Below, one piece after another: positions 4,070 to 62,285 of a stretch of DNA of 64,000 nt. Under the pieces are notes generated by a model. The model had not been told where the DNA came from, made no database searches, and worked only from the letters and a program-made list of their open reading frames with translations. A program made the translations under genes and the position numbers. Origin of the DNA: an uncultured Gammaproteobacteria bacterium (GTDB taxonomy: Bacteria > Patescibacteriota > Patescibacteriia > Magasanikbacterales > GWA2-37-8); the NCBI GenBank assembly GCA_964641245.1, contig CAZXML010000001.1, positions 127,959 through 191,958 of the forward strand. Reading direction: 5' to 3'. Within the stretch, counting starts at the first letter, position 1. Each line of letters starts with the position of its first letter.

Positions 4070-5137
4070 GTGATTTCGTTAAATCATATGTTTGAGAACC
4101 TGCTGGGAAAACTGAGAAAAGATATTGGTATAGATTTGGGTACGGCAAATACTCTTGTTTATGTTAAAGGACGCGGAATAATTATTAATGAACCAAGCGT
4201 GGTGGCCGTTAACACCAAGACCGAACAAATTCTTGCTGTCGGTAATGAGGCCAAAGAAATGCTCGGCAAAACCCCGCCTCATATTCTTACTACCCGTCCG
4301 CTCATCAGTGGTATTATTTCCGACTTCGAAGTTACGGAAAAAATGCTTAAATATTTTATTGACAAGGTTTATGAAGACAGTATGAATTTTATGACCCGCC
4401 CCAGAGTGGTGGTTGGCGCGCCGCTGGAAATTACCGAGGTAGAACTTAAAGCTATTAACGACGCGGTTATTAACGCTGGCGCCCGGGAAGTAATTGTGGT
4501 TCAGGAACCAATGGCCGCGGCTATCGGCGCCCGCATGCCAATACGCGAACCGGTCGGAAGTTTTATCGTGGAAATTGGCGGCGGGACTTCCGAAATTGCC
4601 GTTATCTCTTTAAGCGGCATAGTTACATGGCGTTCCATTCCGGTTGCCGGAGACGAACTCAACCGTAATATTATACAATATGCCCGGGACAATTTTAATC
4701 TGTTGTTGGGAGAAAAACAGGCGGAAGAAATCAAAATTAAAATTGGATCGGCCATAGAGCTACATGAACCAATGCACTTCCCAATGCGCGGCCGCGATCT
4801 TGTTTCCGGACTGCCTAAAGAAATTATGATTAATGATTCACAGGTTAGAGAAGCTATTACAAAATCACTACGGACCATCATAGAAAATATAAAAGGCACT
4901 CTGGAAATTACACCGCCAGAATTGGTCGCCGATATTCACGAAAGGGGAATAGTGCTTTCCGGCGGTGGCGCTCTTTTGCGCGGTTTCGACCAACTAATTG
5001 CCCGCGCCATCGAAATTCCGGTTCGCATTGCCGACGATCCGTTAACTTCCGTGGTTAGAGGAACAGGCCTGCTTCTGGATGACGATGAACTTCTTAAAGA
5101 AATCGCTGTTAAAACTCAAAATCAAGGATCTTCCTAG
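4070..5137 (+). CDS. mreB: rod shape-determining actin-like protein MreB
   Basis: 'IGIDLGTANTLVYVKGRGIIINEPSVVA' and 'VVVGAP', plus the full actin/Hsp70 fold motifs. Confidence 0.9.
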   Translation: MISLNHMFENLLGKLRKDIGIDLGTANTLVYVKGRGIIINEPSVVAVNTKTEQILAVGNEAKEMLGKTPPHILTTRPLISGIISDFEVTEKMLKYFIDKVYEDSMNFMTRPRVVVGAPLEITEVELKAINDAVINAGAREVIVVQEPMAAAIGARMPIREPVGSFIVEIGGGTSEIAVISLSGIVTWRSIPVAGDELNRNIIQYARDNFNLLLGEKQAEEIKIKIGSAIELHEPMHFPMRGRDLVSGLPKEIMINDSQVREAITKSLRTIIENIKGTLEITPPELVADIHERGIVLSGGGALLRGFDQLIARAIEIPVRIADDPLTSVVRGTGLLLDDDELLKEIAVKTQNQGSS

Positions 5138-5146
5138 TAAATTACT

Positions 5147-5947
5147 ATGCTTCGTTTTAAGGCAAAAAATTACTTTTTTTTAGGATTTATATTCGTGTTG
5201 CTTATTTTTTTCCATTATTTTGGGTGGCTTGGCGCGCTGGAACACGGTGTACGTTCTTTAATAATTCCTATTTCCACCAAAATAACACAATGGCGCTTGT
5301 CTTCACAGGATTCTTACAATTATTTTGCCAATCAAAAAAATCTGGTTGGTCAATACAATAAATGTCTCAGTGAAGATCAGGACTCGGATGTAGCCGACGC
5401 AAGAATAAAGGATCTGGAAAAAGAAAACAATGAAATCAGAAAACAACTGAATTTTTTTCATCGCCGAAATTTTACGGCTGTAGGCGCTGACATCGTTGGC
5501 CAAAGCTCCAACAGCGCGGAAAAAATGGTAATAATTGATGCGGGTAGTAGCGCGGGAATAAAACTTGGTCAACCGGTTGTCGCCAGAGACGGAATTCTGG
5601 TAGGCACAATTGCCAAGGTTGAAAGAGATATCGCCATGGTGCGTTTAATAAATGACAACCAGAGCAAAATAGCGGCCACAATTTTAAATAAAGACGGCAG
5701 TTTGGGTGTAGTGGAGGGTGGTTATGGTTTAAGTGTACGAATGAATTTCATACCAAGAAATGAAACAGTGCTTATCGGTGATAAAATTATTACCTCCGGT
5801 TTGGAACAGGCAATTCCGCGCGGTTTGCTGATTGGTGAAGTTGCGGTTGCCGAAAATGAGGCCTACCAGCCGTTTCAACAGGCGGTCCTCACCACCGCCA
5901 TCGACCTCTACAAACTCACTATTGTCAGCGTTCTGATTTCCAACTAA
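5147..5947 (+). CDS. mreC: rod shape-determining protein MreC
   Basis: N-terminal TM helix, a coiled coil ('IKDLEKENNEIRKQL'), then a beta-rich domain ('GQPVVARDGILVGTIAKV'). Lies immediately downstream of mreB. Confidence 0.7.
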   Translation: MLRFKAKNYFFLGFIFVLLIFFHYFGWLGALEHGVRSLIIPISTKITQWRLSSQDSYNYFANQKNLVGQYNKCLSEDQDSDVADARIKDLEKENNEIRKQLNFFHRRNFTAVGADIVGQSSNSAEKMVIIDAGSSAGIKLGQPVVARDGILVGTIAKVERDIAMVRLINDNQSKIAATILNKDGSLGVVEGGYGLSVRMNFIPRNETVLIGDKIITSGLEQAIPRGLLIGEVAVAENEAYQPFQQAVLTTAIDLYKLTIVSVLISN

Positions 5948-25114: not shown

Positions 25115-25915
25115 CTATACTTTTGATTTTAATAGTTCAAGTATTTTTAAAGAACCTTCATACAATTTACTCTTCCATTGTCTGCCACCCTCCGGAATGG
25201 GCATAACCGCATTTGTATCTATTAGCCTTAGACCGTGTTCTGTAAATAATAAATTATTTAATTTAGCGCAATCATATGGGAAATATTTATTCTCGGCCCG
25301 AATGTCCGTTATTTTTTTTATAAATATAGGGAGCTCACGCTTAAGTCTATCTATTACTTCCGGTGAAAAAGCGCTTTTTATGTATACAATAAATTTATTT
25401 AGGCATTCTATTGCCACTAACTTGTCTTCCTTAACTCCCCAATGATAATACCTATATATAGGTTCCATAAATGCAGAATCCCTTGCCATGCTTGCCGTGC
25501 TGGCTTCACTAAGGCGGGGCTGAATCTCATATATAATTTTTTTATTAGTTTTCTCATCTCTGCCAATAACAAACTGTGTCGGCACAATCAGTTCCGGTAA
25601 GGAATCGGCAAAGTAATTCTTCATAATTAAATTTCGATGTTTCAATTCTTTTGCGATTCCCCCAACAGAAATTTCTTTTTTCAATTCTTTCGACCCCTCC
25701 AAAAATAATTCCCTGGCCAAATTCATAGGTTGATCTGAAGAGCGGTATTGTTTTATAACATAACCCTGCGGAACTTTTTCTCTTATACTCTCGGGCAGAT
25801 TTTCCAAATTACCAACTTCTACAAAACTCCCGCCACCATACTTATCACTCTCTAAAGGACCGACTTTAATTTCGGGATTAAGAAAATTTGGCCTAAACTT
25901 TTCTGTCATATACAA
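25115..25915 (-). CDS. hypothetical protein with a protein-kinase-like motif set (putative small-molecule or sugar kinase)
   Basis: Glycine loop 'YGGGSFVEV'. 'YVIKQY' is beta3-Lys-like. 'YDCAKLNNLL' is catalytic-loop-like. 'LIDTN' is DFG-like. I match no named family confidently. Confidence 0.35.
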   Translation of the reverse strand: MYMTEKFRPNFLNPEIKVGPLESDKYGGGSFVEVGNLENLPESIREKVPQGYVIKQYRSSDQPMNLARELFLEGSKELKKEISVGGIAKELKHRNLIMKNYFADSLPELIVPTQFVIGRDEKTNKKIIYEIQPRLSEASTASMARDSAFMEPIYRYYHWGVKEDKLVAIECLNKFIVYIKSAFSPEVIDRLKRELPIFIKKITDIRAENKYFPYDCAKLNNLLFTEHGLRLIDTNAVMPIPEGGRQWKSKLYEGSLKILELLKSKV

Positions 25916-25917
25916 AA

Positions 25918-26754
25918 TTATAGCATTCTTTCTCTAAGCGCTAAATAAGTAAATTTTGCCGTTGCGTTAAATATCCGCACAAATCGTCGAGGCTCCTGAA
26001 TCAATCGATACACCCATTCTAACCCAATTTGGCGTAAAAATAAAGGGGCGCGTTTTACTTTTCCGGAAATAAAATCAAATGACCCGCCCACGCCCATGGC
26101 TATTTTTACACACGGCATTTTTGATAGGTTTTCGTGAATCCATTTTTCTTGCTTGCCCATGCCAAAGGCGACGAAGAGGATGTCGGGGTTTGATTGGTTA
26201 ATTTGTTGAATGGTTGAATTGATGCCGGCGACGAAAACCCCCTCTTCTGTTCTCCCCCTTATAGGGGGAGAGACCGCAGCGAACAGCAACGTGTCGCTCC
26301 CTCCCCTATAAGGGGAGGGACAGTGGGTGGGGTTTTGTTCGTCAATCGCTGGACCCCTATCGAAACCAGAGATCTTTAAACTAGGAAACTTTTTCTGCAA
26401 TTCCTCTGCCGTTCTCTTCACTGTTTCGTCACTCCCCGAACCTAACAAATAAACACTCATCCCTAACTCACCGGCTACCCTACAAATCTCTAACATAAAA
26501 TCTACCCCTGGGACTCTTTTAATTCCAGTAAAAATCTGTAAACCCATCCCATCGCACAAATTCAAATCGCTGGAATTTAAAACCTTTTTAAAATATTCGT
26601 CTTTTTGCGCCTTCACTACAAATTCCGGATTGGGAGTAAAAATTGTATGTTGGCCACCATGCAAAAAATCCACGACTTTTTGTAGTGCGGTTTCTTTGGT
26701 ATCTCCGTCAATTTTTATACCCAAAAATTGCATAATATGGTAAAATTGTACCAT
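25918..26754 (-). CDS. WecG/TagA/CpsF-family glycosyltransferase (N-acetylmannosaminyltransferase-like) carrying an in-frame repeat insertion
   Basis: 'ILFVAFGMGKQEKW' and 'IAMGVGGSFDF..GKVKRAP' match the family. The start is uncertain: M14 at 26754 or M21 at 26733. The ORF-track start at 26793 would overlap the CIRCE-like site. Confidence 0.7.
   Translation of the reverse strand: MVQFYHIMQFLGIKIDGDTKETALQKVVDFLHGGQHTIFTPNPEFVVKAQKDEYFKKVLNSSDLNLCDGMGLQIFTGIKRVPGVDFMLEICRVAGELGMSVYLLGSGSDETVKRTAEELQKKFPSLKISGFDRGPAIDEQNPTHCPSPYRGGSDTLLFAAVSPPIRGRTEEGVFVAGINSTIQQINQSNPDILFVAFGMGKQEKWIHENLSKMPCVKIAMGVGGSFDFISGKVKRAPLFLRQIGLEWVYRLIQEPRRFVRIFNATAKFTYLALRERML
26225..26345. repeat. GC-rich double-hairpin element inserted in frame within the TagA-family gene
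   Basis: Perfect hairpins lie at 26251-26271 (TCTCCCCC-ttata-GGGGGAGA) and 26298-26320 (TCCCTCCCC-tataa-GGGGAGGGA). The local GC content is far above its surroundings. It encodes about 40 extra residues that are absent from the family consensus. Confidence 0.6.
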
Positions 26755-26786: not shown

Positions 26787-26813
26787 TTATCACTCAACTC
26801 GTATGAGTGATAA
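26787..26813. promoter_or_regulatory. CIRCE-like inverted repeat (HrcA-operator-like) upstream of clpB
   Basis: 'TTATCACTC-aactcgtat-GAGTGATAA' compared with the CIRCE consensus TTAGCACTC-N9-GAGTGCTAA. The two arms are perfectly complementary. Confidence 0.55.
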
Positions 26814-37695: not shown

Positions 37696-39129
37696 ATGAA
37701 CGCTTCTACCCTTACAAAAAGACCAATCCCCTTATTCCTTGCCCTATACTTTGGCTTGCGAATTTTTTCCTATTTCTTCAGCCCAGGAACCCCATTATAC
37801 TTGGGCAACCCTATAAATTGGATTGTTTCCGTTGGAATCCTACTACTTACTACCTACTACTTACTACTTCGCAATGACGAGCGTGGCTGGCTGATTATTG
37901 CCGGAGAGTTAATTTTGGGTGGGGCGGGCGGCTTTTTGGAGATAAGAGGTGTTTCTTTGCGAACTTTGTTGCTAATATCCGCAATGGCAATTTTTGTATA
38001 TCATGTTTTAAAAAATAAACAATTTGACGTAATTGGGAGCAAAAGAACTCTATTGCTTATATTCAAAGCCTTGTTCGTGATAATTGGCCTGTCCGCCATG
38101 CGCGGTTACTATTTTGGTCACAATCTTAAACTGGTCTTGGCCGATACCATTCCATATCTTTTCCTCTTATACTACTTCCCGCTCAAACAACTTCTTCAAT
38201 CCGAAACATTTCGTCGCACATCGTTTAACATGTTAATTGCGGCAATAATCGGCAATTTTATTTTTATATATCTGACCCTGGCCGGATTTTCTTCCGGAGT
38301 TTTTGCTCTGCAGGATTCCTACTACCATTGGTTCAGAGATGTAGCCGGCGGCAAGATTACCGACTACGGCACCGGATTTTTTAGAATACTGACAAATGAA
38401 CAATTATTGATTGTGCCGTTGTTGATATTTTTCATCGGAAATATTATTCGCCAACCCACCCCTACCCCGCCCAAGCGGGGAATTACAAGTTTTGGCCTCG
38501 CAATGACAGGCGCGCTATTGGCGCTACTAACAATAAATATAACCCGCATTTACCTGGTCGCGCTGGCCGTTGGTATTTTATTTTTATTCTCCGCAAAAAA
38601 TTGGAAACGCTGGCTTACCTACTCTGCCGGAGCGTTCATTTTTTTTATTTTGGCTTTTTCCCTCACTCACCTAGCCGCCACCAAGGGAAAAAGTTTGGGC
38701 TGGGAATATTTAGGATTGCGCCTGCAAAGTATTGCCATGCCGCAAATTGAAGACAGCTCGCTTAGCCGGATGATGCTTCTGCCGAAAATTCTGGAAAAAA
38801 TCAAACTTCATCCGATATTGGGCAATGGATTGGGTGATGCGGTTACAGTGTTTAGTCCAGTATTCGATGCAAACATAACAACCCCGCATTTTGACTGGGG
38901 CTATTTGGAAATAATAGACGAACTTGGTCTCGTCGGTCTCGCAACTTGGATATTAATTATTGGATATTTGATATTGAAAATTAAACAAAACAAGACCGCT
39001 CTCGCAGGTCTTGTTGGGTTGTTGGTTATAAACATCACTTCCCCGGCGCTATTTCATGTGTTGGGAGTGGTTTTTTTAATTTACTTACTAAGTAGCTATG
39101 GCGAAGTTGAACTCACCGAGTTCCACTAG
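37696..39129 (+). CDS. O-antigen ligase/polymerase (Wzy_C) family polytopic membrane protein, carrying an in-frame repeat and a 14-nt tandem duplication
   Basis: 'HFDWGYLEIIDELGLVGLATWILII' resembles the Wzy_C signature. Many TM helices. Confidence 0.5.
   Translation: MNASTLTKRPIPLFLALYFGLRIFSYFFSPGTPLYLGNPINWIVSVGILLLTTYYLLLRNDERGWLIIAGELILGGAGGFLEIRGVSLRTLLLISAMAIFVYHVLKNKQFDVIGSKRTLLLIFKALFVIIGLSAMRGYYFGHNLKLVLADTIPYLFLLYYFPLKQLLQSETFRRTSFNMLIAAIIGNFIFIYLTLAGFSSGVFALQDSYYHWFRDVAGGKITDYGTGFFRILTNEQLLIVPLLIFFIGNIIRQPTPTPPKRGITSFGLAMTGALLALLTINITRIYLVALAVGILFLFSAKNWKRWLTYSAGAFIFFILAFSLTHLAATKGKSLGWEYLGLRLQSIAMPQIEDSSLSRMMLLPKILEKIKLHPILGNGLGDAVTVFSPVFDANITTPHFDWGYLEIIDELGLVGLATWILIIGYLILKIKQNKTALAGLVGLLVINITSPALFHVLGVVFLIYLLSSYGEVELTEFH
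37840..37867. repeat. perfect tandem duplication of a 14-nt unit (ctactacttactac x2) inside the CDS
   Basis: 37840-37853 is identical to 37854-37867. The unit length is not a multiple of 3. Confidence 0.7.
38450..38484. repeat. 35-nt G/C-hairpin repeat, copy 1, in frame inside the O-antigen-ligase-like gene
   Basis: 'gccaacccacccctaccccgcccaagcggggaatt' is identical to 60448-60482. Contains the hairpin CCCCGC-ccaa-GCGGGG. It encodes 'QPTPTPPKRGI'. Confidence 0.75.
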
Positions 39130-52274: not shown

Positions 52275-53948
52275 TCAATTCCCGTCCAACCCCCTCGCCT
52301 CTTCTCTGCTCTCCACCAATCCCAACCGCACCAAACGCGCTTCTATTCCGCTTTTTTTACGGCCCAGGGTTTCGGCTATTATAGAAAGGAGTGTTTTTTT
52401 GGAAAAAAGTATTTTTAGAATTTCGTCTTGTTCTTCGGTCCACGAACGAAAAGCGTTAGGGTGTTTTTCGCGAATTTTGTCAAAACTGCGATCTTTGCCT
52501 TTATTTTTTTTCATGGGTATAGATCCCTCGTCGGCTAAGGCCTCGCTCGGGATGACAGCGGTGGGAGGGATGACAGATGGTGGGATAACAACAGTGCCAC
52601 TGCATGCTTTTACAAAATTGTTGTGCATTTTTTGTAATTCAGCGGGTGGAATTTCGGCAAAGGCGGTTAAGGCGGCTTCGGAGCTGGCGCGGAATACACC
52701 GTCTTCTTTTAAAACATCCGGATGAACCTGAAACGCGCGTTCGTTCCAGCCGAGCAGATGCAGGCCTTTTAGGCGACGAACGCGGGAAAGCGCCACATAA
52801 CCCTGGCCAAACTCAAAAACTCCGCTCAAGTCCACGACCGCTTCATCCAAACTCATCCCCTGGCTTTTGTGAACCGTAATTGCCCAGGCTAAACGCAGAG
52901 GCAATTGTGAAATTTTGGCGCGCGATTTTCCATTTTCGTCTATACTCCAATCCATTTTTTCTACGGTAATTTTCCGGCCGTCGTTGGTTTTTACAATCGG
53001 CATGCCGATATACTTATCAAAACTTTCCACCGTGCCCAGCGTGCCGTTTACATAACCCTCTTTAGGATTATTTTTGGTAAACATTATTTTTGCGCCTTCT
53101 TTTAAAACTAAATTATACGGAGAAAGACATCCTCTCTGCAATGTTTCCACCAACCCGGGAGCGCCCTTAGATGTCATGATGTATGTTACGGGGTGTCCGG
53201 AAAAAGTTTCCAACATGGCGTCATTGGTGCGGTCAACATTTATGTTATGCGTATAAAGTTTCACCGCTTTGTCCGGCGCGTCATCAGCCAAAATTTTTCG
53301 GCTTTCTAGTTGCGCTAAATGGTTTTCATTAAAATTATTGGAGCGGATTGCCGAAAGTAAATTTAAAAACTTACTGTCATCCTGACGATGCTGTTCGGTA
53401 AGATAACAAACCATTGGATTCGCTCTTTTCCAGGCCGGAGAATCATAGGCAAACCGCGCTATTGGAGTATTAAACATTTCAGTTTGATCATCCCGACTTG
53501 CTACGCTTTTCGTTATTGGTGGTAACTGAAAAAAATCCCCTACCAAAATAACCTGTAACCCGCCAAAGGCATCGTTGTTTTGTCTGATACTCCGGCACAC
53601 GGCCTCTACCATAGAAAAAGTATCGGGGCCGAGCATTGATACTTCGTCTATCACCAAAACTTTTGCGCGGCGAACGCGTTTAACCAAATATTCGGTAGAA
53701 GAAATTTTATCTAACTCATACCTATCCAAATACGGTTTGATTCCAATCCCACTCCACGAATGAATTGTCATCCCGCCAATATGAGTAGCCGCGATGCCCG
53801 TGGAAGCCGTAATGGAAGGCTCTATCCCCCGCGCGCGCAAATAATCCGCGTACTGATTTATAGTATGCGTCTTGCCCGCTCCCGGTTCTCCGGTTAAAAA
53901 AACATTGGCGCCGGTTTTAAGTATGTCCAGCGCTTCCTTCTGATTCAT
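52275..53948 (-). CDS. PIF1/RecD-family (AAA_30) DNA helicase with a C-terminal HTH-like domain and an in-frame repeat insertion in the linker
   Basis: 'LTGEPGAGKTHTI', 'VLVIDEVSM', 'VGDFFQLPP' and 'TVHKSQGMSLD'. The linker 'VVIPPSVIPPTAVIPSEALADEGSIP' is encoded by the repeat. Confidence 0.75.
   Translation of the reverse strand: MNQKEALDILKTGANVFLTGEPGAGKTHTINQYADYLRARGIEPSITASTGIAATHIGGMTIHSWSGIGIKPYLDRYELDKISSTEYLVKRVRRAKVLVIDEVSMLGPDTFSMVEAVCRSIRQNNDAFGGLQVILVGDFFQLPPITKSVASRDDQTEMFNTPIARFAYDSPAWKRANPMVCYLTEQHRQDDSKFLNLLSAIRSNNFNENHLAQLESRKILADDAPDKAVKLYTHNINVDRTNDAMLETFSGHPVTYIMTSKGAPGLVETLQRGCLSPYNLVLKEGAKIMFTKNNPKEGYVNGTLGTVESFDKYIGMPIVKTNDGRKITVEKMDWSIDENGKSRAKISQLPLRLAWAITVHKSQGMSLDEAVVDLSGVFEFGQGYVALSRVRRLKGLHLLGWNERAFQVHPDVLKEDGVFRASSEAALTAFAEIPPAELQKMHNNFVKACSGTVVIPPSVIPPTAVIPSEALADEGSIPMKKNKGKDRSFDKIREKHPNAFRSWTEEQDEILKILFSKKTLLSIIAETLGRKKSGIEARLVRLGLVESREEARGLDGN
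52521..52590. repeat. GTCATCC-family repeat unit plus degenerate tandem partial copies, in frame within the helicase gene
   Basis: 52521-52557 is identical to 33197-33233. It is followed by 'gcggtgggagggatgacagatggtgggataaca', a reiteration of the gggatgaca terminus. Confidence 0.75.
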
Positions 53949-56971: not shown

Positions 56972-58150
56972 CTAACACGGACTTACAGAACCACCGCTTA
57001 CATTATAAGAAATAACTTCGGTTTTATCGATTATGGATTCGTCAATCAGCCCTTCGTATTTTAAAACATCTTTTAGTCTGGCCTTTGTTTCCGGGTGCTT
57101 AGCCACAAATAAACTGCAACAATCTTCGTAAGGGCGGGCGGAAATATCCAGGGTGCCGATTTTACGGGCAAGATCTATTATATCTTTTTTATTTGTTCCT
57201 ATCAACGGTGACAGTTTTAACAATTCCGTGGCATTGGCAATAACGGCCATGTTCTCCAGAGTTTGCGAAGCCACCTGGCCTAAGCTATCGCCGTTTACTA
57301 ACGCCAGACAATGATTTTGGCGGGCAACTTTTTCGGCGATTTTATTAAATATCCGGCGCGTCACTATCATGCGGTATGGCGCCGGAACCTTCATAATAAT
57401 TTGTTTTTGAACTTCAGCAAACGAAACCATAAATAATTTTATCTCGGGCTGGTAGTTGGATAAAACTTTCGCCAAATCAAATATTTTTTCGCTTACCGCT
57501 TCGGTAACTTGAGTTTGATTTTGAAAATGAATCAGGCTTGCTTCCCCGCCCCGGCACATTATTTTGTATGCCGCCACCGGGCTGTCTATGCCGCCGGATA
57601 ACAAAGCCAGCACTTTGCCGGATGAACCTGCAGGCAATCCGCCGGCGGCGTTTTGCGTATTACCATAAATACAAGTTTCGGTTTTGCCGACGGAAATATG
57701 AATATTCAAATCCGGATTATTTAAAGAAACCTGCCAGTTATATTTTACGCGCGCGTATTCCCCGATTTCTTTGGCTATTTCGCCGGATGAAAGTGGGAAG
57801 TTTTTAAATGAACGTTCGGCGGAGATGCGGAAGGACAGCGCCTCGGCAACTCCCTCTCGCTCCCTCTTGGTAAGAGGGAGATTGTGACCGAACAATTCGT
57901 CTACTCCTTTTTTTATATCCTCAATCGTGGATTTTGTTTTTATAGCTTCGGAGTAATTGGCAAAACCTGGAATTAGGGATAATTGCGACATTTGCTCCGC
58001 CTGAATATTTTCCAGCCATAAGCCCCCCTCTACTCTGACAACCCGAACACCCGATAACAGATTTTCGAAATTATTCTTAAGATGACGATAAAAAAGGGGC
58101 TGATTAGAGCCCTTCAAGAATATCTCGTCTATGTGGATAATTACATTCAT
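56972..58150 (-). CDS. thiI: tRNA 4-thiouridine synthase ThiI (THUMP + PP-loop)
   Basis: PP-loop 'ALLSGGIDSPVAAY' with an N-terminal THUMP-like region. Confidence 0.8.
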   Translation of the reverse strand: MNVIIHIDEIFLKGSNQPLFYRHLKNNFENLLSGVRVVRVEGGLWLENIQAEQMSQLSLIPGFANYSEAIKTKSTIEDIKKGVDELFGHNLPLTKREREGVAEALSFRISAERSFKNFPLSSGEIAKEIGEYARVKYNWQVSLNNPDLNIHISVGKTETCIYGNTQNAAGGLPAGSSGKVLALLSGGIDSPVAAYKIMCRGGEASLIHFQNQTQVTEAVSEKIFDLAKVLSNYQPEIKLFMVSFAEVQKQIIMKVPAPYRMIVTRRIFNKIAEKVARQNHCLALVNGDSLGQVASQTLENMAVIANATELLKLSPLIGTNKKDIIDLARKIGTLDISARPYEDCCSLFVAKHPETKARLKDVLKYEGLIDESIIDKTEVISYNVSGGSVSPC

Positions 58151-58941: not shown

Positions 58942-60072
58942 TTATTTTGCTAAAAACTGTTTTATCTTCTCCGCATTTCGCAGCTGTCCGCAAGCGGCGG
59001 CGATGTCTTGGCCTTGAGAGTAGCGGATGGTAGAAACAAAACCGGCTTTCATTAATTCCTCGTGCCAGTGTTTAATTACGGTTTTGTCCGAACCAATAAA
59101 ACCCGGAGAAAATTCCGGTGTAGAAATACTGTTATAAGGAATCAAATTTATTTTAATTTTTCCTAATTTTCCTGCCAGCGTCATCAGCGCTTTTAAATCT
59201 TTGGGACCGTCGTTTACTCCGCCTAACATAATATATTCCAAACCGATAAAATGAGAACGGCTTGGGTGCATTTGGTGATATTTTTTTGCCCAGCCCACTA
59301 AATAATCCAAAAATCCGGGTTGGTGTGAAGGCATGATAGCGGAGCGGGTTTGTTCTATAGCGCTGTGCAAAGACAGGGCAAAGCGTACAGGCGGAAAATC
59401 TTTGTCTTCCACCAACCTGTCCATGGCCGTGGGAATTCCGCAGGTGGACATGGTAATTTTACTCGGCCCGATGTTTGTATATTTTAAAATAATATTTAAA
59501 GCGGTTTTGCAATTTTCATAGTTCAGCAATGGTTCTCCCTGGCCCATCACCACCATATTATCTATTTCCCCGCCATTTTGTTCCGCTAATGTCTTCTGTG
59601 CCGACTTTCCAGCGGGAAAGTCGAGCATCCTCGATTCCACGGTGAGGCGGAATCGGGACCAAAAACGATACTGGTCCACAATTTCTTCAGCGGTTAAATT
59701 TCTGGAAAATCCGGCTTTACCGGTGGCGCAAAAAGAACATTTCATGCCACAGCCAACTTGAGATGAAATACAAATTGTGTAACGGTCCGGTCCCCCATCG
59801 GTTTTGAGTGACTTTCGACCCATTAAAACCGCCTCAATAAGTTGGCCGTCTTCCAATTTTAATAAAGCCTTTTGAGTGTCATCGGTTTTACTTTTGTGGA
59901 GAACGTGTAATTTTACCGACAGCCAAGGCTTGTCTTTTAACTTCTCCCGTAAATTTGCCGGCAAGGTTGTAATATCAGCGTAGCTATTTAACTTTGCGTC
60001 AAACCAGGCCCGGAACACTTGGTCCTGCCTGAATTTCTTTTCGGTTGCTAAAATTTGGAATAAATCTATCAT
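58942..60072 (-). CDS. rlmN: radical SAM 23S rRNA (adenine2503-C2)-methyltransferase RlmN/Cfr family
   Basis: 'GCGMKCSFCATG' is the CxxxCxxC motif. 'MGQGEPLLN' is also present. Confidence 0.85.
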   Translation of the reverse strand: MIDLFQILATEKKFRQDQVFRAWFDAKLNSYADITTLPANLREKLKDKPWLSVKLHVLHKSKTDDTQKALLKLEDGQLIEAVLMGRKSLKTDGGPDRYTICISSQVGCGMKCSFCATGKAGFSRNLTAEEIVDQYRFWSRFRLTVESRMLDFPAGKSAQKTLAEQNGGEIDNMVVMGQGEPLLNYENCKTALNIILKYTNIGPSKITMSTCGIPTAMDRLVEDKDFPPVRFALSLHSAIEQTRSAIMPSHQPGFLDYLVGWAKKYHQMHPSRSHFIGLEYIMLGGVNDGPKDLKALMTLAGKLGKIKINLIPYNSISTPEFSPGFIGSDKTVIKHWHEELMKAGFVSTIRYSQGQDIAAACGQLRNAEKIKQFLAK

Positions 60073-62285
60073 TTTATCGCATTCAAAATCTTTTCTTTAA
60101 TATCGTTTGGAGTCATTTTGGCGACCTCATAAACCTCGGCTACATTGCCGGATTTTAAATAGTGAGTTATGCCGATGGATTTTTTGGCGTAATTTGGTTG
60201 GAGCATGAACGGATACAGAAACCCGGGCCAGCCGTTGTGGAGGGTGATGACAAGCGGGCGTTCTTCATCCGGCAGAATTAATTGGGCGCTGGCGGGATTG
60301 GAGTGACGGAGTTCTTCAAATAGTTCCGGGGAGGTGACGGAAATGATTTTTATATCAAAACCTTTGGCTTCAAGTTCGGGTATAATTTCTAGGGTGTTTA
60401 ATAGGACTTGCATGCCGCAGATGGCGAGGACGAGCTTCCGACCGTCGGCCAACCCACCCCTACCCCGCCCAAGCGGGGAATTCGAAAATTGTTTGTAGAC
60501 GTAGGCGCCGTTGGTGGCTGAAATCGCCGGTGGGACAATAGCGCGGTTGATTACGGGTTGTTCCGGTCTGTAGACGGACAGAACGATTGGTTCGCCGCGT
60601 TCCAGCGCGTAAAATAACATTTCTATAGTTTCGTTAGCATCGGTAGGTTTGTAAACTTTTATGCCGGGCAAGGCGTTGTAAAGAGACATCCAATACATTC
60701 CCTGATGTGTTGGGCCGTCCTCGCCAGTTTCCGGGCCATCATGCGCGGCTAAGGCAATAAAAAATCCTTTGGTTTCCGGGTTGAGCTGATTGCCGATAAC
60801 AGCCAGGCGAATAGCGTTGGCCATCATATTTGTAAAGACGGCAAAAGTGCCAAAAACAGAAACGGGTTTGTATCCGCCGGGTAAAATATCTTGAGTTAAG
60901 CCGGCGCCCATCATGGCCATATTTTGTTCGGCAATTCCATAACGAATACCGCGCCCTAACGGATTTTTCCGGCTGATGAGACCATAAACTTCTTCGGCGG
61001 TATTTGTGAAAACAGATTTTGATAAATCCCCCGCTCCGGCGTAAAAAAATGCGGTTTGTTTCATGTACCAGGCCATCCACGCTTGCGCGGCTGTGCGGGT
61101 AGAAACTTTTTTTCCTTCGGCAAAAACCAGTTCGGGCGGTAAAACTTTTGGACGTTTTATGGCCAGTGGGTTAACCATCGGCCGGCCATTTAGCGTCTTC
61201 ACCATTTGTTTTACCAATTCCGATTCATGCGGAATTTTTTTAGCTCCAACTTCTAATCTTTCTAAAATATATTTTTCATCATCAGTTGTAATTTCTTTTA
61301 AGACGGTTTGAATATCAGCCATTACTTCCCCCGCTTTTCCAGGAATATCAAATCCCAGTTTTTTCATTATAGACACATACTCGTCATGTTTTACGGGCGA
61401 GCCGTGCGATGCGGCGGTGTTTTCTTTGGAGCCATAGCCTTTTCCTTTTAAGGTATGGCAAATAATTACCGTTGGCGAGCCGTTGGCAAAACCCTGCGCG
61501 GCCAAACGATAAGCGTAAACCATTTCCAAAACATTGTGCCCGTTTGTTTCTATCACATTCCATCCCAGCCCCAGCCAATGATTTATGTACGGCGAAGCCA
61601 CCACTTCCTCAATTTCCGCATCAATGCCAAAATGATTGTAATCCAAACTGACAATCATGTTTTTTAATCCGTTGGTGGCGATAATATTTCGCGCCTCATA
61701 AGTCATCCCTTCTTCGCTTTCCGCGTCGCCCATAAAAACAAAAGTTTTGGTATCCAATCCGCAGGATTGATGAACCATAGCCATTCCACCCGCCGCCGAA
61801 AATCCGTGCCCGGACGGCCCGGTAGTAAAATCGGAATAAGGATATTGAGCTTCCGCGTGACCCTGCGGGCCATCGGCGTGTCTAAAGCGTAATAAATCCT
61901 CCGGAAAAACTGCCTTCACCACCGCCCCGGAAAATTGCCTCCCTGCGCGCCGTAACATTTCATAATATAAAGCCTGCCCGCCAAAAAGCAAAGGAGTGCA
62001 ATGACCGGAACTCCAAACCACTCTGTCTCGGCCAGGATTTTTTGGATTCACCGGATCAAAAGCCATTACCCCACCCAAGGTCATTGCTAAAAATTGTTCT
62101 ACTTTTCCACTGCTGCCCGGATGGCCGGATTGTCCGGCTTCTACGGCGGCGAAAATAAGGCCACGGATAACTTTGGCCAGTTTGTCTAATCTTTGTATAT
62201 CAATTCCGTCTATGGCAGATATTTTTTTGTTTTGAATGTTTATGTATTCGGGAGCTAGAGGGTTTGCTTTTAATTTTTTAAACAT
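60069..62285 (-). CDS. tkt: transketolase (single-chain, 738 aa) with an in-frame repeat insertion
   Basis: N-terminal TPP motif 'SGHPGSS' ... 'GHCTPLLF', and 'GDAESEEG'. The insertion encodes 'NSPLGRGRGGLADG'. Confidence 0.85.
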   Translation of the reverse strand: MFKKLKANPLAPEYINIQNKKISAIDGIDIQRLDKLAKVIRGLIFAAVEAGQSGHPGSSGKVEQFLAMTLGGVMAFDPVNPKNPGRDRVVWSSGHCTPLLFGGQALYYEMLRRAGRQFSGAVVKAVFPEDLLRFRHADGPQGHAEAQYPYSDFTTGPSGHGFSAAGGMAMVHQSCGLDTKTFVFMGDAESEEGMTYEARNIIATNGLKNMIVSLDYNHFGIDAEIEEVVASPYINHWLGLGWNVIETNGHNVLEMVYAYRLAAQGFANGSPTVIICHTLKGKGYGSKENTAASHGSPVKHDEYVSIMKKLGFDIPGKAGEVMADIQTVLKEITTDDEKYILERLEVGAKKIPHESELVKQMVKTLNGRPMVNPLAIKRPKVLPPELVFAEGKKVSTRTAAQAWMAWYMKQTAFFYAGAGDLSKSVFTNTAEEVYGLISRKNPLGRGIRYGIAEQNMAMMGAGLTQDILPGGYKPVSVFGTFAVFTNMMANAIRLAVIGNQLNPETKGFFIALAAHDGPETGEDGPTHQGMYWMSLYNALPGIKVYKPTDANETIEMLFYALERGEPIVLSVYRPEQPVINRAIVPPAISATNGAYVYKQFSNSPLGRGRGGLADGRKLVLAICGMQVLLNTLEIIPELEAKGFDIKIISVTSPELFEELRHSNPASAQLILPDEERPLVITLHNGWPGFLYPFMLQPNYAKKSIGITHYLKSGNVAEVYEVAKMTPNDIKEKILNAIK
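60448..60482. repeat. 35-nt G/C-hairpin repeat, copy 2, in frame inside the transketolase gene
   Basis: Identical to 38450-38484. Confidence 0.75.

Follow-up and report, generated by a model that had tools for sequence, protein, structure and literature searches.

A probable copy of a dispersed triplex-motif repeat in the reading frame of a TagA/WecG-family glycosyltransferase gene of Patescibacteria

Repeats with the sequence layout of an intrastrand triplex were described in E. coli as BoxC (Bergler 1992), as potential intrastrand triplex (PIT) elements (Hoyne and Maher 2000) and as TM_ECO (Holder et al. 2015, PMC4666352). TM_ECO has the pattern 5'-CCCTCNCCC N3-6 GGGNGAGGG N3 GGGNGAGGG-3'; in vitro, circular dichroism, nuclear magnetic resonance and UV melting show that its single strand folds into a stable triplex, the duplex forms no triplex, and an in vivo footprint was not seen (PMC4666352). 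These repeats occur as palindromic inverted pairs with raised variability in their flanks, show no association with transposons and are "always located intergenically" in E. coli; an earlier study had found no promoter or terminator activity for PIT/TM_ECO (PMC4666352). Besides this triplex class, palindromic repeats that lie in frame within genes are already known from Rickettsia, as the Rickettsia palindromic elements (RPEs). Here we describe an element at positions 26234–26336 of a 64,000-nt stretch of DNA from an uncultured bacterium placed by GTDB in the Patescibacteriota (Magasanikbacterales; assembly GCA_964641245.1, contig CAZXML010000001.1; the whole stretch is called the window below). 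The element lies within the gene of a TagA/WecG-family glycosyltransferase. We consider it probable, at roughly 0.8, that it is a copy of a dispersed triplex-motif repeat resembling REP (repetitive extragenic palindromic) sequences, situated in a permissive loop of TagA and in the open frame, translated as a disordered segment and inherited largely vertically. New in this locus are the combination of triplex repeats with in-frame colonisation of genes, the phylum, and the conservation of the stems above the synonymous rate across orthologues. No description of in-frame triplex repeats in Patescibacteria was found in the literature searched, which leaves most subscription journals outside it.

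The whole element is a compound palindrome of 103 nt (26234–26336, from the AAAACCCC end to the GGGGTTTT end), in which two inverted units of ~39 nt, each composed of a C-rich leader and a perfect hairpin of 9–10 bp, flank a variable central spacer of 26 nt (26272–26297; 29 nt in three orthologues). Its limits are based on the inverted-repeat arms and on fold z-scores, and the unit boundaries on regular-expression matches and the orthologue alignment. Unit alpha (26298–26336, minus strand) reads in the sense of the mRNA AAAA, leader CCCCACCC, linker ACTGT, arm CCCTCCCC, loop TTATA, arm GGGGAGGG and A, giving the peptide NPTHCPSPYRGG. Unit beta-prime has its C-rich leader on the opposite strand (26234–26271, plus strand), where it reads AAAA, leader CCCCCTCT, linker TCTGT, arm TCTCCCCC, loop TTATA and arm GGGGGAGA; the peptide from its mRNA strand is SPPIRGRTEEGV. 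The perfect hairpins are TCTCCCCCT/tat/AGGGGGAGA at 26251–26271 in beta-prime and TCCCTCCCCT/ata/AGGGGAGGGA at 26298–26320 in alpha, both with a loop of 3 nt. An initial annotation of the window had placed them at these same positions, with stems of 8–9 bp that are in fact 9 and 10 bp long; it had not recognised that they are an inverted pair of one repeat unit, nor that this unit falls within the class of intrastrand-triplex repeats described before.

Both hairpins lie inside one imperfect inverted repeat with arms of 39 nt (26229–26267 and 26303–26341, 77% complementary), and it is the leaders of the units that form the outer inverted repeats. The GC content was 0.58–0.60 over 26220–26340 against 0.40 for the window; the GC island is clear, though the description "very high" holds in relative terms only. 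A region of 141 nt yielded a folding energy of −69.4 kcal/mol as RNA (z = −5.3, and −5.7 as DNA, relative to dinucleotide shuffles), and none of 200 shuffles folded as well. The predicted fold is a junction with two hairpins, closed by an outer stem. This outer stem was considered as the main constraint on the element and rejected, each leader following its own hairpin and not the partner leader; the two leaders agree at only 5 of 8 positions. No intrinsic terminator was found at the element in a consensus scan. Rfam gave no match anywhere in the window at gathering thresholds, and the 64 kb thus yielded no tRNA, rRNA or riboswitch; at a permissive E-value only sub-threshold chance matches appeared (miRNA models, and whalefall-1, which scored 17 bits where its threshold is 37). 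Perfect GC-rich hairpins number only four in the 64 kb, two of them in the element and two in a pair of 35-mers discussed below.

The host gene (25918–26733, minus strand) encodes a protein of 271 amino acids that matches Pfam PF03808 (E=1e-48) and the TagA structure 7MPK in the PDB (E=9e-44); the protein is 100% identical to the 271-residue P0001 and has more than 5000 WecG homologues. Translation most likely starts at the ATG at 26733, giving 271 residues as in P0001, and a GTG further upstream at 26793, which would give 291 residues, is a less likely alternative. As the initial annotation had proposed, the frame runs through the cassette, and translation of the minus strand returns exactly the peptide quoted there. 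The phmmer alignment with 7MPK pairs residues 3–133 with TagA 6–142 and residues 171–264 with TagA 143–234; residues 142 and 143 of TagA are thus adjacent across the gap, indicating a clean insertion of 37 residues. These residues (N134–G170, codons at 26224–26334 on the minus strand) have no TagA counterpart in the split alignment and are predicted to be disordered; their position corresponds to a TagA loop that follows a beta-strand and precedes the next helix. AlphaFold2, supplied with that alignment, gave a mean predicted local distance difference test score (pLDDT) of 84 and a predicted template modelling score of 0.81, with pLDDT below 50 only at residues 134–167 and above 90 in the flanks, and with short strands at 129–131 and 167–169 that bring the ends of the insert together. 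Because of this low pLDDT and the strands that join its ends, the insert is probably a disordered surface segment looped out from an intact enzyme fold. A tryptic peptide predicted from the translated insert is GGSDTLLFAAVSPPIR. Of the three frames only one is open in each orientation of the doublet. It is exactly this one that the in-frame copies use, as would be expected if a purifying filter had acted on random insertions.

The leader and the hairpin are related by one rule: all variants have a leader that mirrors the C-rich arm and is neither its direct repeat nor its reverse complement. The arms and leaders pair as CCCTCCCC with CCCC[A/T]CCC, CCTCCCCC with CCCCCTCC, TCTCCCCC with CCCCCTCT, TTCTCCCCC with CCCCCTCTT, CTCCCCCC with CCCCCCTC, TCCTTCCCC with CCCCTTCCT and CCTCCTC with CTCCTCC. 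Where the leader could be classified, its type matched that of the hairpin in 75/75 alpha, 64/65 beta and 6/6 beta-prime units; about an equal number of hairpin detections were leaderless, the palindromic hairpin being detected on its leaderless strand as well. A perfect antiparallel third segment (triads G.G-C, A.A-T and T.A-T) was present in 201 of 279 distinct asymmetric hairpins with a G-rich trailer, as compared with 66 in the parallel register and 40 expected from position-shuffled arms. When 31 distinct Patescibacteria units were aligned, the hairpin was 96% paired, with compensatory changes in three of nine pairs and a covariation score that none of 500 shuffles matched. The leader also followed the purine arm in the parallel register, columns 13-39 matching in 31/31 units and columns 15-41 in 30/31. 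The third variable column held C-G, T-A or A opposite A, and A/A on the complementary strand is a canonical T.A-T triad. This covariation is the signature of an intrastrand triplex motif, a class described before, and it suggests that a triplex may form in vivo.

Such motifs are defined as a pyrimidine stem, a loop of 1–6 nt, a purine stem, a second loop of 1–6 nt and a reverse-Hoogsteen stem on one strand (PMC4666352). A finder script for antiparallel G.G-C, A.A-T or T.A-T triads, with stems of at least 8 nt and at most one mismatch, picked out exactly three motifs in the window, and 20 shuffles of it yielded none. The first is unit alpha (26298–26333, plus strand; TCCCTCCCCT-ATA-AGGGGAGGGA-CAG-TGGGTGGGGT, 10/10 triads, loops of 3 and 3 nt) and the second unit beta-prime (26237–26271, minus strand; TCTCCCCCT-ATA-AGGGGGAGA-ACAGA-AGAGGGGGT, 9/9 triads, loops of 3 and 5 nt), both readable as class II (purine-motif) triplex motifs; the third, at 57848–57880 on the minus strand with 9 triads, belongs to another gene (see below). 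The element thus has both the sequence pattern and the mirror covariation of the intrastrand triplex class. The G-quadruplex consensus is also matched by GGGGAGGGACAGTGGGTGGGG in unit alpha. A quadruplex was rejected as the unifying constraint, since the G strand of alpha fits it and those of beta and beta-prime do not, whereas the triad rule fits all.

Homologues of the host protein are mostly 238–250 residues long and lack the segment. In an alignment of 31 sequences, the segment DEQNPTHCPSPYRGGSDTLLFAAVSPPIRGRTEEGVFVAG was present in the window protein and in P0002, P0003, P0004, P0006, P0007 and P0010, and absent from the others; the nearest relatives of the host gene carry Patescibacteria or Magasanikbacteria names in the source records, and seven assemblies, independent of one another and drawn from NCBI, ENA, Logan and JGI, contain the insert. 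Six carrier genes (L001, L003, L005, L006, L007 and L008) and four relatives without the insert (L156, L157, L158 and L159) were fetched as DNA. The empty sites encode E-NPACRF-D in L156 and E-RSVCKF-D in L158, and together with the shorter orthologues and the missing counterpart in 7MPK they bear out that the segment was inserted in frame. A deletion footprint was sought and not established, as the empty site of L156 (GAAAATCCC...GGTTTGAT) loosely resembles collapsed element ends and that of L158 does not.

In the codon alignment of the carriers, third-position identity was 0.84 in the element and 0.58 elsewhere in the gene; first and second positions in the element ranged from 0.83–0.87, and amino-acid identity was alike inside and outside the element (0.72 and 0.74). 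The mean pairwise identity over six orthologues was 99% for unit beta-prime (the 3' unit) and 91% for unit alpha (the 5' unit), where the differences lie mainly in the 5-nt linker, as compared with 57% for the spacer (26–29 nt, with a 3-nt indel) and 58% for the third codon positions of the gene. Since the stems are 91–99% identical and the spacer and third positions only ~57–58%, the constraint appears from these alignments to act on the nucleotide sequence of the stems and not on the peptide. Conservation of the peptide over the nucleotides, which the initial annotation had named as an observation that would speak against its proposal, was not seen; it is the nucleotide level that is conserved more strongly. 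The second hairpin of L006 shows a compensatory change from T-A to C-G, and the same gene carries an in-frame insertion of 78 nt (at about 660-740) nested in the loop of the first (alpha) hairpin. This nested insertion holds an A/T-rich homopurine/homopyrimidine hairpin of its own, GAAAAGAAAA-caagc-TTTTCTTTTC. All length changes in the segment, i.e. the spacer indel and the nested insertion, are multiples of three and therefore as expected if the segment is translated. The spacers can be aligned in all six carriers and are unrelated to those of copies at other loci. Because the TagA spacers align with each other and not with those of other loci, the sequences point to one ancestral insertion in TagA.

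In metagenome contigs, a unit-specific pattern matched 27 loci, mostly from Hainich groundwater with a few from JGI samples. The related groundwater contigs of Patescibacteria hold ~20 other sites, of which ~8 distinct ones are in frame in long open reading frames (ORFs) and ~12 are intergenic or at gene ends; about 40% of the sites are thus in frame. With three related units in the window besides, the existence of related copies elsewhere, as first proposed, is confirmed. Besides singlets there are two kinds of doublet, tail-to-tail as in TagA and head-to-head. The in-frame hosts confirmed by Pfam are a PIF1-like helicase, TruB (where a doublet splits the TruB_N domain), a class II aminoacyl-tRNA synthetase (aaRS)-like gene and an RluA-type pseudouridine synthase; further hosts are a protein of 670 residues and a membrane protein that contains two doublets. 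Near-identical units are present in L030, a locus of a GTDB Patescibacteria metagenome-assembled genome, between a DUF559 gene and prfB. The doublet at 4663-4778 of L030, the closest outside TagA, overlaps the 3' end of the DUF559 gene (Vsr-like endonuclease fold) upstream of prfB, and a partial unit lies at ~5166, at the other end of the DUF559 ORF (4729-5199, minus strand).

A looser two-hairpin pattern matched at least 120 stretches in GTDB genomes, typically with one alpha-type and one beta-type unit. Among the matches listed are Rhodocyclales, Burkholderiales, Geobacter, Desulfobacteraceae, Oscillibacter, Synergistaceae (including the complete genome of Fretibacterium fastidiosum), Bacteroidales, Planctomycetota, Marinimicrobia and several Patescibacteria. 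A leader variant was observed in Synergistaceae (L017, L038, L048, L069, L072 and L112), Oscillibacter (L035, L065 and L114) and Fretibacterium (L053, L101 and L124), in which a small extra hairpin, and not a linker of 3-5 nt, separates the leader (e.g. CCCCTCC) from the hairpin (CCTCCCC...). This variant of Firmicutes and Synergistota is a more elaborate form of the same mirror design.

Taken together, the cassette is most likely one copy of a dispersed, non-coding, REP-like repeat whose unit is a G/C-rich triplex motif of the BoxC/PIT/TM_ECO class. Because the leader mirrors the hairpin arm, a single strand could in principle form a hairpin with the third strand in its groove. An ancestor of a Magasanikbacteria-like clade of Patescibacteria would have gained the doublet in a loop of TagA that tolerates insertions, and the surviving copy, being in the one open frame, would be translated as a disordered surface loop of ~37 residues. 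Afterwards the three stem segments of each unit would have stayed near constant in DNA while the spacer and linkers drifted, either by selection on nucleic-acid structure or recognition or by homogenisation with other genomic copies. The mobility assumed here is suggested by the distribution of the copies.

Several observations weigh against this account. Among the ORFs of the window that reach 90 amino acids or more, 53 in number, none has a Pfam match to a transposase, a REP-associated tyrosine transposase (RAYT) or another candidate mobilising gene, and inspection of the flanks, in TagA and at other loci, revealed no target-site duplication. No other copy of the exact subfamily of the element occurs within the 64-kb window. 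In a neighbour-joining tree built on 230 columns, the carrier P0010 falls outside the carrier clade and the insert-free P0009 inside it; a single clean gain is not upheld by this tree, which is not decisive in that one gain plus losses, recombination or repeated gain fit it alike. For E. coli TM_ECO the triplex was seen in single strands in vitro only and not in vivo, and RNA is said not to form triplexes of the purine motif (PMC4666352). Finally, a full HMMER scan of 1.84 billion representative proteins with a 40-residue profile of the insert returned the WecG cluster as the only strong host. The other matches of this profile were weak and resemble proteins built of other short repeats, and a word-indexed search with the same profile gave no match, the query being too short and of too low complexity for the index. 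The peptide is a poor tracer of the element; DNA patterns later found TruB and the other in-frame copies. With respect to the flanks, a 9-nt direct repeat, GGCGACGAA (26167 and 26227), is present and does not flank the element.

The alternative that survives best, and that overlaps with the favoured reading, is that the segment is a cis-acting nucleic-acid structure kept for a function in the host, with the peptide as a tolerated by-product. Candidate functions are a pause in transcription or replication, a gyrase or IHF site like those of REP sequences and bacterial interspersed mosaic elements (BIMEs), a structure that stabilises the mRNA, or a pause in translation that helps TagA to fold. 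We regard it as a tentative explanation, well behind a passenger repeat in probability, and the proposed functions as equally tentative. Stems that are 91–99% identical where synonymous sites reach 58%, with a spacer and linkers that drift, are what such a function would predict, as are the compensatory changes that preserve both the hairpin and the third-strand register (including T-A to C-G in L006) and the strong predicted fold on both strands. The presence of units in many unrelated places, intergenic and genic and in both orientations, argues against a role specific to TagA, however, and close relatives manage without the insert. PIT/TM_ECO in E. coli has neither promoter or terminator activity nor an in vivo triplex footprint, the element itself shows no terminator-like signature and no Rfam match, and gene conversion among copies could equally explain the conservation.

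A stronger form of this idea, in our view somewhat less likely again, holds that triplex motifs in Patescibacteria are not mere passengers, and that selection maintains their stems because these function as DNA or RNA structures, deliberately located in essential genes and serving perhaps as programmed pause, recombination or recognition sites. It is compatible with the data because the stems are conserved beyond the synonymous rate, covariation is found in both registers and all copies in the window are intragenic. The enzyme involved might then be a DUF559-type nuclease or a novel single-strand transposase. If true, the spread of such repeats would be a major source of lineage-specific disordered loops in Patescibacteria proteins.

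An element of the REPIN type, i.e. two inverted REPs replicated by a single-copy RAYT that is encoded elsewhere in the genome and acts on single-stranded hairpins, would agree with the inverted doublet accompanied by singlets, with the lack of a target-site duplication and with stems conserved as expected of a recognition substrate. None of the 53 window ORFs matches a Y1 or other transposase family, though, and a conserved 5' tetranucleotide of the GTAG type was not established; the nearest described relatives (BoxC/TM_ECO) are not found with transposons, and REPINs are extragenic by definition. We therefore consider this origin unlikely. More doubtful still is that the 37 residues are an adaptive addition to the protein, such as a new interaction or membrane-contact loop, with the palindrome incidental. 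The insert is in frame in seven assemblies and has the invariant blocks NP.PSP.RGG and SPPIRGRTEEGV, but synonymous positions are equally conserved (third positions 0.84, first and second 0.83–0.87), the invariant residues coincide exactly with the nucleic-acid stems, and other frames in other genes give other peptides, e.g. KTPPTVPPLVG and PLQGEGQGEGF; moreover, the segment is predicted to be disordered, and in other orthologues this loop is occupied by unrelated palindromes. Removal of the segment after transcription or translation, as a small intron or an intein-like sequence, or an assembly artefact can be dismissed as highly improbable: the element is sharply bounded and Patescibacteria are known for introns in rRNA and tRNA genes (PMC13011429), but the segment is stop-free with length changes in threes, as expected only if it is translated, Rfam has no intron match, 37 residues are far too short for an intein, and the same sequence recurs in seven independent assemblies. 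Translation of the segment rather than its removal is what these points suggest.

The TagA loop that carries the element in the window holds other palindromes in some orthologues, an AT-rich one in L157 (115-936) and, in L159 (2001-2765), the inverted pair GTCATTCCCGC...GCGGGAATCC, which folds with −48 kcal/mol and encodes CHSRQSGNP...DSHLHGND. The loop is a permissive hot spot. In a wider set of Patescibacteria TagA/WecG proteins (P0002-P0112), lengths range from 238-335 amino acids because lineage-specific in-frame inserts, which resemble translated repeats, occupy at least three loops; they include GLPGEALAKTG or SVIPAQAGIQ near the N-terminus and SFRPKQSGVEKSL...DPSTA..GMT or PPPTPPPKRGA after GxGLxI. 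Next to the TagA gene, an ORF of 266 amino acids without a Pfam match (25115-25912, minus strand) lies between it and gltX; this ORF is missing in the otherwise syntenic L001, where TagA adjoins gltX, and has a counterpart of 264 amino acids in L003 and L005.

The window has a very high coding density, with 53 non-overlapping ORFs of at least 90 amino acids, and all copies in it are in frame in protein-coding genes. The 35-mers (CCAACCCACCCCTACCCCGCCCAAGCGGGGAATT) lie at about 38450-38484 (plus strand) and 60448-60482. They are composed of a leader, AACCCACCCCTA, and the hairpin CCCCGC-ccaa-GCGGGG, and the trailer of the G strand, GGGGTGGG, is a mirror of GCGGGG in which the C interruption faces a T. 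The first copy is in frame in a membrane protein of 477 residues (ORF 37696-39129, plus strand) and gives the peptide QPTPTPPKRGI; the second is in frame in transketolase (ORF 60069-62285, minus strand) and gives SPLGRGRGGL. The initial annotation had suggested that the cassette may be a diverged, compound member of the 35-mer family. The kinship holds in so far as the architecture is shared, the likeness of agtgggtggggtt and gtaggggtgggtt being that of the third-strand segment in both; the element is not a diverged copy, however, and judging from the stems (CCCCGC vs CCCTCCCC) the 35-mers are a sister subfamily within one class. An orthologue of the membrane protein, in L146, has a different insert of ~190 nt at the site of the 35-mer.

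The third triplex motif of the window (57848-57880, minus strand), CTCCCTCTT-acc-AAGAGGGAG-cga-GAGGGAGTT, has 9 triads, is in frame in ThiI (56972-58147) and encodes NLPLTKREREGVAEA; its subfamily reads "CTCGGCAA CTCCCTC TCG CTCCCTC TTGGTAA GAGGGAG" and has relatives with a covarying leader in L008, L131, L146 and L155. The gene of a PIF1-like helicase (ORF 52275-53945, minus strand) contains a GC-rich in-frame segment near its C-terminus (52509-52600) that encodes VVIPPSVIPPTAVIPSEALADEGSIP, and at the equivalent site the orthologues in L134, L136 and L146 have a triplex-motif singlet of the alpha type (PLQGEGQGEGF). Because of these singlets, this site of the helicase is another insertion hot spot.

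The locus links intrastrand-triplex repeats, which have been described as strictly intergenic in E. coli, with the colonisation of genes known from RPEs, in a third lineage with reduced genomes. It offers a concrete explanation for a part of the unusual GC-rich stretches and additional loops by which the annotation of proteins in metagenome-assembled Patescibacteria genomes is inflated and confused. Orthologues with and without the insert, and stems set against the spacer, amount to a natural experiment on selection for DNA structure or concerted evolution.

In comparison with known systems, the element shares with RU/ERIC and Correia elements, intragenic MITEs (miniature transposable elements with inverted repeats) of enterobacteria and Neisseria (Delihas, PMC2759123, PMC2229807), that it is a small, non-autonomous repeat, some of which have open frames in genes and add a peptide; the terminal inverted repeats and target-site duplications typical of those MITEs were not found here. 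The likeness to REP/BIME and the REPIN-RAYT system (Bertels and Rainey 2011, PMC3116915) is closer and includes a short, GC-rich, imperfect palindrome, the occurrence as singlets and as spaced inverted doublets that fold into a long hairpin, the lack of a target-site duplication, and conserved stems with variable loops and spacers. The architecture agrees with the definition of REPINs (PMC3116915, PMC3337134), its extragenic position excepted. REP sequences are extragenic and defined by their RAYT, whereas the genes of the 64 kb include no RAYT, and a mirror third segment is not a REP feature.

With the RPEs (Ogata et al. 2000; PMC1779305, PMC10969869) the element shares that palindromic repeats lie in frame in many unrelated and often essential genes of a reduced genome, that the open frame is used and that the sites fit the protein fold. 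RPEs differ in being ~100-150 bp long, AT-rich and confined to Rickettsia, with no triplex-type mirror rule described and presumably no sequence relationship with the element, whose 39-nt G/C-rich units also occur as singlets. Rickettsia RPEs lie on protein surfaces. The resemblance would be functional only, with the opposite base composition, and the element is very unlikely to be a member of the RPEs.

[quoted passage not shown] Both are G/C-rich in an AT-richer genome, multicopy, very well conserved and present as singlets or inverted pairs without an associated transposase. They differ in the stems, which here are CCCTCCCC/GGGGAGGG/GGGTGGGG and TCTCCCCC/GGGGGAGA/AGAGGGGG and not the CCCTCNCCC consensus of TM_ECO, indicating another sequence subfamily; in the host, which here belongs to Patescibacteria and not to Proteobacteria or Cyanobacteria; and in the position, which here is in frame in TagA, with other copies in TruB, RluA, the aaRS-like gene, PIF1 and ThiI.

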